Assembly (NCBI GenBank): GCA_964589625.1
Contig: CAZPSH010000006.1
Coordinates: forward strand, 21,922 to 85,921
Origin: an uncultured Thermoanaerobaculia bacterium
GTDB taxonomy: Bacteria; Acidobacteriota; UBA4820; DSQY01
Direction: 5' to 3'
DNA: 64,000 nucleotides
The notes beneath the pieces were generated by a model. The model did not search any database. It saw nothing but the letters and a program-made list of their open reading frames with translations, and was not told the DNA's origin. Shown piece by piece: positions 13,918-14,152 of the stretch. The stretch's first letter is position 1, and each line of letters opens with the position of its first letter. A program made the position numbers and the translations under genes.

Positions 13918-13941
13918 GGCGGAGAGGGGGGGATTCGAACC
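13918..13941 (-). repeat. Duplicate of the 3'-terminal 24 nt of tRNA-Ser (att-like direct repeat or pseudo-tRNA fragment)
   Basis: GGCGGAGAGGGGGGGATTCGAACC is identical to the 3' end of the tRNA-Ser gene 118 bp away, then diverges; it cannot fold into a cloverleaf. Confidence 0.6.
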
Positions 13942-14058
13942 TACAAGGACCCTGCGTTTCAAGGCCGCCTACGGTTCCCGGGGTGGGGGGTCAGCGGAGC
14001 GACCGAAGGGAGCGGAGCGCATAGGGGGGAGGACGGGACGGCCTTCCCCCTTGCTTCT

Positions 14059-14152
14059 TGGCGGAGAGGGGGGGATTCGAACCCCCGGTCCAGGTTTGAG
14101 CCCGGACAACTGCTTAGCAGGCAGTCCTGTTCGGCCACTCCAGCACCTCTCC
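14059..14152 (-). tRNA. tRNA-Ser (anticodon GCT), long variable arm, encoded CCA
   Basis: Manual fold: acceptor GGAGAGG/CCTCTCC, anticodon stem ACTGC/GCAGT with loop CTGCTAA, T-arm GGGGG-TTCGAAT-CCCCC. Confidence 0.85.

Follow-up and report, generated by a model that had tools for sequence, protein, structure and literature searches.

The DNA analyzed here, referred to as the window, is a stretch of 64,000 nucleotides (nt) from an uncultured Thermoanaerobaculia bacterium of the Acidobacteriota (positions 21,922 to 85,921 of contig CAZPSH010000006.1, assembly GCA_964589625.1). It is a core chromosomal region with rpoBC, rplKAJL, nusG-secE, rpmG, tuf and a Thr-Tyr-Gly-Thr tRNA cluster; the Pfam-scanned open reading frames (ORFs) elsewhere in the window are housekeeping genes and include no mobile-element protein. 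Six tRNA genes, all on the minus strand, are identified by ARAGORN and the Rfam tRNA model, and three of them, those for tRNA-Ser, tRNA-Trp and tRNA-Gly, are followed at a distance of 118–219 nt by a second copy of their 3' end that is exact or nearly so. It is well supported that these three loci represent one family of approximately 170–230-nt, protein-less, highly structured insertion elements and that this family is confined to the 3' ends of tRNA genes in Acidobacteriota-type genomes.

All repeat copies lie on the minus strand like the tRNA genes themselves, each of which is intact. The 28-nt copy that includes the 3' end of tRNA-Ser(gct) (gene 14059–14152, proximal copy 14056–14083) recurs at 13914–13941 with 27 of 28 nt identical; the exact 24-mer occupies 13918–13941 and 14060–14083, and the single mismatch changes the encoded CCA to CCG in the distal copy. 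For tRNA-Gly(tcc) (28568–28643, 73.9 bits with the Rfam tRNA model), the 3'-terminal 26 nt (28567–28592) are repeated without mismatches at 28322–28347, from the T-loop GGTTC through CCA plus one nucleotide. The repeat at tRNA-Trp(CCA) (26595–26670) is longer, with 53 of 53 nt shared by 26562–26614 and 26305–26357, and consists of 20 nt of tRNA and 33 nt of trailer. The distal copies of Ser and Gly start at the T-loop GGTTC and diverge beyond it (..GAACC|TAC on the plus strand), and the Trp copy starts 5 nt further 3', without GGTTC. The presence of the same architecture at all three tRNA genes and the common point of divergence at Ser and Gly had been pointed out in an earlier note on this DNA, and both were recovered with a repeat finder; the coordinates given there are correct overall, except that the tRNA-Ser copy was placed one nucleotide off (14059–14082). 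The same note had drawn attention to a 19-mer within the Ser and Gly inserts. This sequence, CCTACGGTTCCCGGGGTGG, has exactly two occurrences in the window (13968–13986 and 28404–28422), both exact, with about 0.1 matches expected when three mismatches are allowed and two or more seen in 0 of 100 shuffles; it is the reverse complement of the most conserved core of the element.

Homologous inserts are found in other genomes. L001 and L002, two Acidobacteriota contigs from metagenome-assembled genomes (MAGs) with RplL 88–90% identical, which were the only useful matches of a contig scan with RplL that otherwise yielded largely distant taxa, show the same architecture at tRNA-Trp and tRNA-Gly, and their Trp inserts are homologous to the Gly insert of the window. 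A gapped pattern derived from this Trp/Gly similarity (CCCCGGGAACCG..GGTTCRANYCC) was scanned over metagenomes and identified 79 loci, with 43 matches that are clear family members. A covariance model (CM R1), built from short-type copies of other contigs only, gave 51 sense matches of at least 50 bits in 609 kb, all downstream of tRNAs and in arrays of up to three. In total, the family comprises about 50 copies on about 40 metagenome or MAG contigs, each located just 3' of a tRNA gene in the sense orientation. Every scan member with enough upstream sequence has a complete tRNA 100–420 nt upstream, and the sequence that follows GGTTC is the 3' end of that same tRNA. Thirteen isoacceptors are occupied, namely Gly-tcc, Ser-gct/gga/cga, Trp, Leu-taa/caa/tag, Arg-ccg, selenocysteine (SeC), Ala-cgc, Lys-ctt and Asn-gtt. 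The direct repeat starts with GGTTC (positions 52–56) in 43 of 43 scan members, GGTTC being required by the search pattern, and extends over 24–30 nt in simple insertions and over a variable 24–122 nt overall; the inserts are 118–282 nt long and contain no ORF. The miniature, non-autonomous character that the earlier note had proposed is supported.

We found no earlier description of this family in Rfam or in the searchable literature, which is no proof that none exists. In Rfam 15, only tRNA reaches its gathering score, and E-value scans of the Gly copy and of L098 returned nothing credible. Three pattern scans of IMG/VR yielded chance matches only, none confirmed by the covariance model, and blastn against phages and plasmids produced no match to the element.

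Read on the tRNA strand, an intact tRNA gene is followed by a locus-specific spacer that sometimes holds the terminator of the tRNA, as is the case in L108, L151, L154 and L164, where this terminator lies between the tRNA and the element. Next come the left inverted repeat (IR-left), which is the reverse complement of the T-loop, T-stem and first acceptor bases of the cognate tRNA, the motif GAAGGG (GAAGGGCGGGG), and helix P2, which encloses a variable middle domain that exists in a short and a long version. On the 3' side of the middle domain lie GGGGACCCGCCCC GGGAACCGTAG, including the invariant segment CCCCGGGAACCGTAG, a P4/P5 hairpin with the conserved internal loops TTGAAACGCAG and CGAGGCTTCTAG, and GTA. 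The element ends with the second tRNA copy, from the T-loop GGTTC through CCA plus a variable stretch; CCA is kept in most of these distal fragments. On either side, the common body is joined to its flank at the palindrome TTCGAA (..ATTCGAA|GGG... and ...GG|TTCGAA..).

The consensus fold derived from 15 short-type copies contains 56 pairs, 25 of which show compensatory changes, and forms a strongly covarying three-way junction. P1 pairs IR-left with fragment positions 57–67, P2 closes the middle domain, and P3 pairs the invariant GAACC with the T-loop GGTTC and leads into P4/P5; therefore the duplicated tRNA strand (GGTTC|GAATCC...) is continuous through P3 and P1. With P1 extended, the fold reaches 61 pairs, in which 94.3% of the cells are paired compared to 85.0% in shuffles and double changes are found at 28 pairs compared to 12.9 expected; neither value was attained in any of 500 shuffles, and sliding the partners by 1–3 columns reduced pairing to 36–51%.

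IR-left is specific to the tRNA that it follows: the mean paired run from position 59 is 5.8 with its own tRNA and 2.2 with other tRNAs (permutation p<1e-4), the specificity being missing in an AT-richer lineage (L139, L169). In orthologous Trp and Gly copies, 8–10 of 12 positions each match a perfect inverted copy of tRNA positions 59–70. IR-left is probably not a fresh copy of each target, because T loops of the TTCGAG type face CGAGAA where the exact complement would be CTCGAA (six of the six such copies examined). The possibility that IR-left is a pre-existing feature of tRNA trailers was also considered and rejected given that tRNAs without an element show no excess of downstream complements. 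An origin of the element from tRNA-Tyr, to which a T-stem-like GTAGG and a D-arm-like antisense stretch might have pointed, was discarded as well: the D-arm likeness is limited to the window/L130 copy, and GTAGG is explained by its pairing with CCGTAG (pairs 117:170 and 118:169).

The helices are Watson-Crick in 95.7% of 855 cells, and G-U and A-C mismatches are equally rare (8:6 in these cells and 7:8 in the 777 cells of the 3' domain), with some G-U in outer P1 pairs. In the acceptor and T stems of tRNAs on the same contigs, the ratio is 15:0 in 384 cells (Fisher p=0.006). The tolerance of G-U far above A-C by which a sense RNA is recognized is thus not displayed by the element helices. This outcome is symmetric, so that it names no functional strand; the symmetry suggests a single-stranded DNA hairpin or folding of both strands and is atypical for one sense RNA.

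The three copies in the window are one family in three states: intact at Gly, deleted at Ser and rearranged at Trp. The Gly element is an intact, long-type copy with a 219-nt insert (28348–28566, minus strand). It starts with a purine-rich spacer, followed by IR-left with the junction (28504–28515), P2 (28497–28503 paired with 28417–28423), the core GGGAACCGTAG (28405–28415) and P4 (28398–28404 paired with 28351–28357), which encloses P5, and ends with GTA before the distal fragment, which provides the 3' strands of P3 and P1. CM R1 detects this copy at 28323–28524 on the minus strand with 79.7 bits (E=2e-16), although the model comes from short-type copies, and a single-sequence fold reproduces P1, P2 and P4 (z=-2.85). 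The body is 96% identical to its orthologue in L130 and 76% identical to the Trp copy of L002, and the copy is intact in all relatives examined, inside the Thr-Tyr-Gly-Thr-tuf cluster, in which ARAGORN and the Rfam tRNA model place the remaining tRNAs of the window, tRNA-Thr (28112–28187), tRNA-Tyr (28696–28782) and tRNA-Thr (28856–28930), all on the minus strand. In the interval that separates the Gly element from tRNA-Thr(ggt) (28200–28320), an 8-nt tandem repeat, (CCTACTCN)n at 28264–28319, stands opposite an inverted partner at about 28213–28240, forming a long simple-repeat hairpin. A similar (GTGAGNAG)n/(CTCACTCC)n hairpin follows the elements in L001 (250–345) and L002 (250–380 and 2270–2390), just before secE or tRNA-Thr.

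The Ser element (13942–14058, minus strand; the insert is 118 nt when counted to 14059) is decayed. It retains an IR-left remnant, CAAGGGGGAAGG (14042–14053), and the core CCACCCCGGGAACCGTAGGCGGCC (13963–13986), followed by a truncated P4/P5, and is hit by CM R1 at 13917–14059 with 14.7 bits (E=0.055); an unrelated repeat module occupies the interval of about 13987–14041. At the same Ser site, the closest strain, L174 (GCA_040758175.1), has lost the 3' domain and retains intact 5' and middle domains (72.9 bits). The Ser states in the window and in L174 are complementary and therefore represent reciprocal deletions of one ancestral copy. The repeat module (window 13987–14041) recurs in other contigs, where it likewise separates the element from the tRNA or its fragment (L174 at about 14310–14440, L168 at 7360–7470 and 7615–7680, L102 and L098). 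It reads ..AAGGGGGG.GGCCG..CCTCCCCCC..GCTCCCTTCGGTCGCTCCGC.GACCCCCCACC, with full copies continuing GGCGCTCCAGGCGACGTGAAGTC..CTTCGCGCCGTTTT, and probably represents either a further family of small repeats or a unit resembling a terminator.

The Trp element (26358–26561, minus strand; 204-nt insert) is rearranged. As seen from blastn against L130 and from a reading of L130 and L170, it has preserved its Trp-specific IR-left and the beginning of P2 (GACGAGGGGCGAGAAGCCC, 26523–26541), which are common to the intact Trp copy of L130, L170, L171, L173 and L176, and the rest of the body is unrelated GC-rich sequence that joins the distal repeat without GGTTC. CM R1 does not detect this copy; L174 has the same rearranged version. 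The proposal in the earlier note of one family of inserts flanked by direct repeats of the tRNA 3' segment is accordingly upheld by the homology of the inserts, in their three states of preservation.

The note had also suggested a comparison with sister genomes, and the Trp site proved to be polymorphic. In L175, this site is exactly empty, with tRNA-Trp directly followed by the secE leader; RplL is identical among the compared contigs. The flanks in L170, L171, L173 and L176 are identical to those of L175 and enclose an additional 256 nt, bounded by a 48-nt repeat; in the L170-type insert, this repeat extends from the T loop to 21 nt past CCA. The empty Trp site is represented in sample SRR7539573, and the filled one in ERZ27247351, 3300025310 and 3300006865. 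Among more distant contigs, the Trp site is also empty in L148 and L076 and is occupied in L001, L002, L116, L117 and L138. Arrays of two or three copies are present in L101, L115, L117 and L151, where the tRNA-proximal copy is usually intact and the distal copies are degenerate. Within a metagenome, the bodies at different tRNAs (L098/L101/L127; L139/L169) are 94–97% identical from GAAGGG to GGTTC, and the spacers are unrelated. The repeat ends at a variable distance past CCA, either 0–5 nt beyond it or, as two clean cases show (L151, L164/L165), where the tRNA terminator ends.

Several further observations concern the surroundings of the copies. Downstream of rpoC, strains with identical RplL differ completely (window 13143–14303, L170 19045–19477, L171 17064–18070, L175 13216–13623): this region contains tRNA-Ser, the element and an OmpH-like gene in convergent orientation in the window and L174, and an unrelated AT-richer stretch in L170, L171 and L175, with an RHS/YD-shell gene next in L171 and L172. 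In L132 (1980–2110), the tRNA-Ser(gct) in front of the element is reduced to its 3' half, which begins at the anticodon loop, and adjoins AT-rich DNA; this half-tRNA looks like a displaced fragment of an ordinary island of the anticodon-loop class that took the resident element along. In the related contigs L103, L123 and L142, the element resides behind tRNA-SeC with AbiEii-type toxin genes close by, and the terminator hairpin of this tRNA falls within the duplicated unit.

Our search for an enzyme covered, with Pfam, 85 ORFs within 6 kb of the copies on about 30 contigs and 30 of the 41 predicted ORFs of the window. No recurrent integrase, transposase or reverse transcriptase was detected in this set, and no Y1 (HUH) transposase/TnpA or REP-associated tyrosine transposase (RAYT; REP, repetitive extragenic palindrome) was seen in it. 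All-versus-all clustering of 859 neighboring ORFs returned only housekeeping families and ORFs read through the element. As for transcription, the tRNA-Ser gene has a strong promoter-like site, TTGACG-18-TATAAT, at 14203->14174, and neither a promoter nor a terminator was detected inside the copies of the window; judging from these sequence features, the elements are most likely co-transcribed with the tRNA.

The closest known counterparts are genomic islands inserted in tRNA genes. When a tyrosine integrase splits a tRNA gene, the gene is restored by the island, whose far end is marked by a displaced 3' fragment; attP sites of the T-stem region form the most frequent class (1836 of 3919 islands), and an integrase gene within the candidate is required by island finders such as Islander (PMC4383910). 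Like these islands, the element is bounded by an intact tRNA gene and a cognate 3' fragment in the same orientation, its repeat runs from the T-stem/loop region to or just past CCA (both being features that Islander looks for), it forms tandem arrays at one tRNA, and its presence varies among strains. Unlike them, it has no integrase and no cargo, measures only about 200–250 bp, has a body that is a covarying multi-helix structure with an internal inverted copy of the target, and occupies 13 isoacceptors as one family. The whole element is roughly the size of the lambda attP alone.

The element shares a short, non-coding, multi-copy nature and presumed mobilization in trans with miniature transposable elements that have inverted repeats (MITEs), REP doublets forming hairpins (REPINs) and cis-mobilizable elements (CIMEs), and specifically its richness in hairpins with REPINs and the att-like bounding repeats with CIMEs derived from integrative and conjugative elements (ICEs). 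In contrast to MITEs, its direct repeat of 24–122 nt is no short, fixed-length target-site duplication, and its 10–15-bp inverted repeat is derived from the target and specific to the tRNA, whereas a family-wide transposase-binding terminal repeat is lacking; it differs from all three groups in being found strictly at tRNA 3' ends, with no linked RAYT or ICE seen.

Integron attC sites, the attP of CTX phage, and the ends of IS200/IS605 elements and their ORF-less derivatives, palindrome-associated transposable elements (PATEs), act as folded single-stranded DNA, and the cleavage sites of IS608 are paired with guide bases inside the element. The conservation of a structure with strict Watson-Crick covariation resembles these sites, as a resemblance only, and the sense strand of the co-oriented genes is likewise the lagging-strand template. 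At the right end, the order GAACC, P4/P5, GTA, GGTTC, in which GAACC lies just 5' of the hairpin and is complementary to the GGTTC of the terminus or target, recalls IS200/IS605 ends in its geometry only. However, GGTTCGA does not fit the attC core GTTRRRY, and the element follows tRNA genes and carries no cassette ORF. IS200/IS605 elements leave no repeat, so that the repeat would have to be borne by the element itself, and no TnpA was found.

Among RNAs, the location in transcribed sequence downstream of a tRNA is shared with tRNA-trailer small RNAs (3' external transcribed spacers) and Rfam sX4 (RF02223). The latter matches the element weakly, at 20–27 bits (via L098 9129–9477) compared to a gathering score of 70. 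The sX4 consensus comprises an anticodon arm with CGA together with the T arm and acceptor end of tRNA-Ser, i.e., it is essentially tRNA-Ser(CGA) plus a trailer, and the weak match is therefore due to the tRNA fragment; sX4 was accordingly rejected as the RNA family of the element. Seven sX4 have been reported from tRNA sequences of Oleidesulfovibrio alaskensis (PMC11124144), and these are likely to be tRNA matches as well. A self-cleaving ribozyme, a group I/II intron fragment, a retron and a bridge RNA, considered from their generally known motifs, found no support, and no such family appeared in the Rfam E-value scans.

The best explanation of the family, to which we give about an even chance of being correct, is a non-autonomous mobile element that is specific to tRNA 3' ends and is moved in trans, in other words, a tRNA-3'-end integrative element stripped to its structured site. 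Such an element would use site-specific recombination to enter a tRNA gene in its T-loop region and would bring a replacement 3' end, so that the tRNA would stay intact and its original 3' end would be displaced downstream. The element would follow the same logic as integrative elements that target tRNA genes, in a unit about as large as an attachment site, and its enzyme would be supplied in trans. By analogy with integron attC, CTX-phage attP and IS200/IS605 ends, a folded single-stranded form may present or recognize the T-loop site, which would explain both the strict Watson-Crick covariation and the right-end geometry of guide, hairpin and complementary site (GAACC, P4/P5, GGTTC). Arrays would grow on the tRNA-proximal side, and copies would be lost via recombination between repeats or would decay by small deletions. 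The earlier note had also ascribed the repeats to tyrosine-recombinase integrases; an integrase would be a candidate agent.

Several points weigh against this explanation. No recombinase was identified, neither linked to the copies nor as a co-occurring gene. Insertion at the T loop with the 3' end of the old tRNA would create a chimeric tRNA at a new isoacceptor, and no known mechanism explains the spread to 13 tRNAs, each with a matching fragment and IR-left. The empty site of L175 could result from a deletion between repeats instead of reflecting the absence of insertion, gene conversion instead of recent transposition could account for the likeness of bodies within a genome, and strict Watson-Crick covariation could stem in part from templated correction of quasi-palindromes, without selection. 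The repeats that end at the terminator (L151, L164) hint at an RNA intermediate, and the probable co-transcription with the tRNA, together with the absence of any internal promoter or terminator from the window copies, leaves room for a role of the element at the RNA level, especially for the well-kept Gly copy. A more novel reading, rather improbable in our judgment, is a protein-less, self-folding module that addresses tRNA genes by base pairing and is inserted by a trans-acting enzyme. By pairing with the T-loop, T-stem and acceptor strand, the constant GAACC together with the variable IR-left would set the place of insertion, such that a few changes in IR-left would retarget the element to another isoacceptor. 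This module would work via single-stranded DNA (or an RNA copy) and would differ in kind from att sites read by proteins.

The alternatives have to be weighed against the same evidence. If the element were a host-useful structured RNA, transcribed as a tRNA trailer and acting at the RNA level, with its DNA spreading only rarely, one would expect what is seen in its constant sense orientation directly behind a tRNA, in the lack of a promoter or terminator in the window copies, in the full-length conservation and covariation, and in the preservation of the Gly copy in all relatives examined; the fold would end in a tRNA-like acceptor 3' strand with CCA, which most distal fragments retain, and some G-U is present in outer P1 pairs. 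Possible roles would include a processing or insulating module of tRNA operons, a decoy for enzymes or toxins that read tRNA 3' ends, and a T-arm partner. We nevertheless consider such an RNA rather unlikely given that G-U shows no excess over A-C, unlike in tRNA stems on the same contigs, that copies decay freely and divergently in near-identical strains, with one absent in L175, that tandem arrays have degenerate distal members, and that the terminator of the tRNA precedes the element in four contigs (L108, L151, L154, L164); moreover, 13 tRNA hosts still demand a mechanism of mobility. Another alternative is a retro-element-like origin, in which a reverse transcriptase would produce both the duplicated tRNA piece and the inverted IR-left by copying a tRNA transcript from its 3' end to the T loop, switching templates or snapping back at TTCGAA onto the element RNA, and yielding a chimeric cDNA that becomes fixed at the locus. 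The position of both body junctions on TTCGAA agrees with this scenario, and repeat ends 0–5 nt after CCA or at the end of the terminator (L151, L164/L165) are plausible RNA 3' ends; the 8–10 of 12 inverted matches in Trp and Gly orthologues look like decay from a one-step copy, and snap-back synthesis would give inverted flanks without selection. This origin appears unlikely, and distinctly so: no reverse transcriptase was found among the Pfam-scanned ORFs near the copies or in the window, the L170 repeat ends 21 nt past CCA where there is no terminator, IR-left is not tRNA-specific in the AT-richer L139 and L169, CGAGAA takes the place of CTCGAA opposite TTCGAG-type T loops in all six copies, and the intact upstream tRNA does not follow from the model itself.

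Two other explanations that the earlier note had considered, remnants of larger integrative elements and degraded tandem tRNA copies, fare worse. If three independent islands or prophages, formerly large and equipped with an integrase, had been almost entirely deleted and had left ordinary attL/attR scars, this would account for correctly oriented direct repeats of tRNA 3' ends from the T-stem/loop, the classical signature of islands (PMC4383910). Yet the intact form, about 200–250 bp including one repeat, is conserved at full length in about 50 copies on many contigs, and independent deletions would not converge on one structured sequence; the tRNA-matched internal inverted repeat and the covariation are foreign to att scars, none of the copies contains an integrase pseudogene or another gene of an island, and no long relatives with the same ends flanking an integrase and cargo were present among the loci examined, which makes such scars very unlikely. 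Degraded tandem tRNA copies or chance repeats would fit the tRNA likeness of the 3' 24–26 nt, to which it is limited, but are refuted by the alignments and have next to no chance of being the answer: the sequence 5' of the fragments is unrelated to tRNA bodies, and the inserts are homologous to one another and to elements behind other tRNAs. The scan for additional tRNA genes that the note had recommended points the same way, with none of the distal fragments called a tRNA or a pseudo-tRNA by ARAGORN or the Rfam tRNA model.

Transfer RNA genes are the classic landing sites of integrases, and displaced 3' fragments are routinely taken for the scars of islands. In the family described here, a gene-less unit of about 200 nt yields the island signature, many times per genome. 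The strict Watson-Crick covariation without RNA-type wobble makes the element a clean case, and a caution, for pipelines of structured-RNA discovery. The family also bears on how tRNA operons are annotated, the tuf and secE-nusG leaders among them, and marks genomes of the Acidobacteriota. If the internal complement specifies the target, these elements would represent a small, reprogrammable means of addressing tRNA genes.

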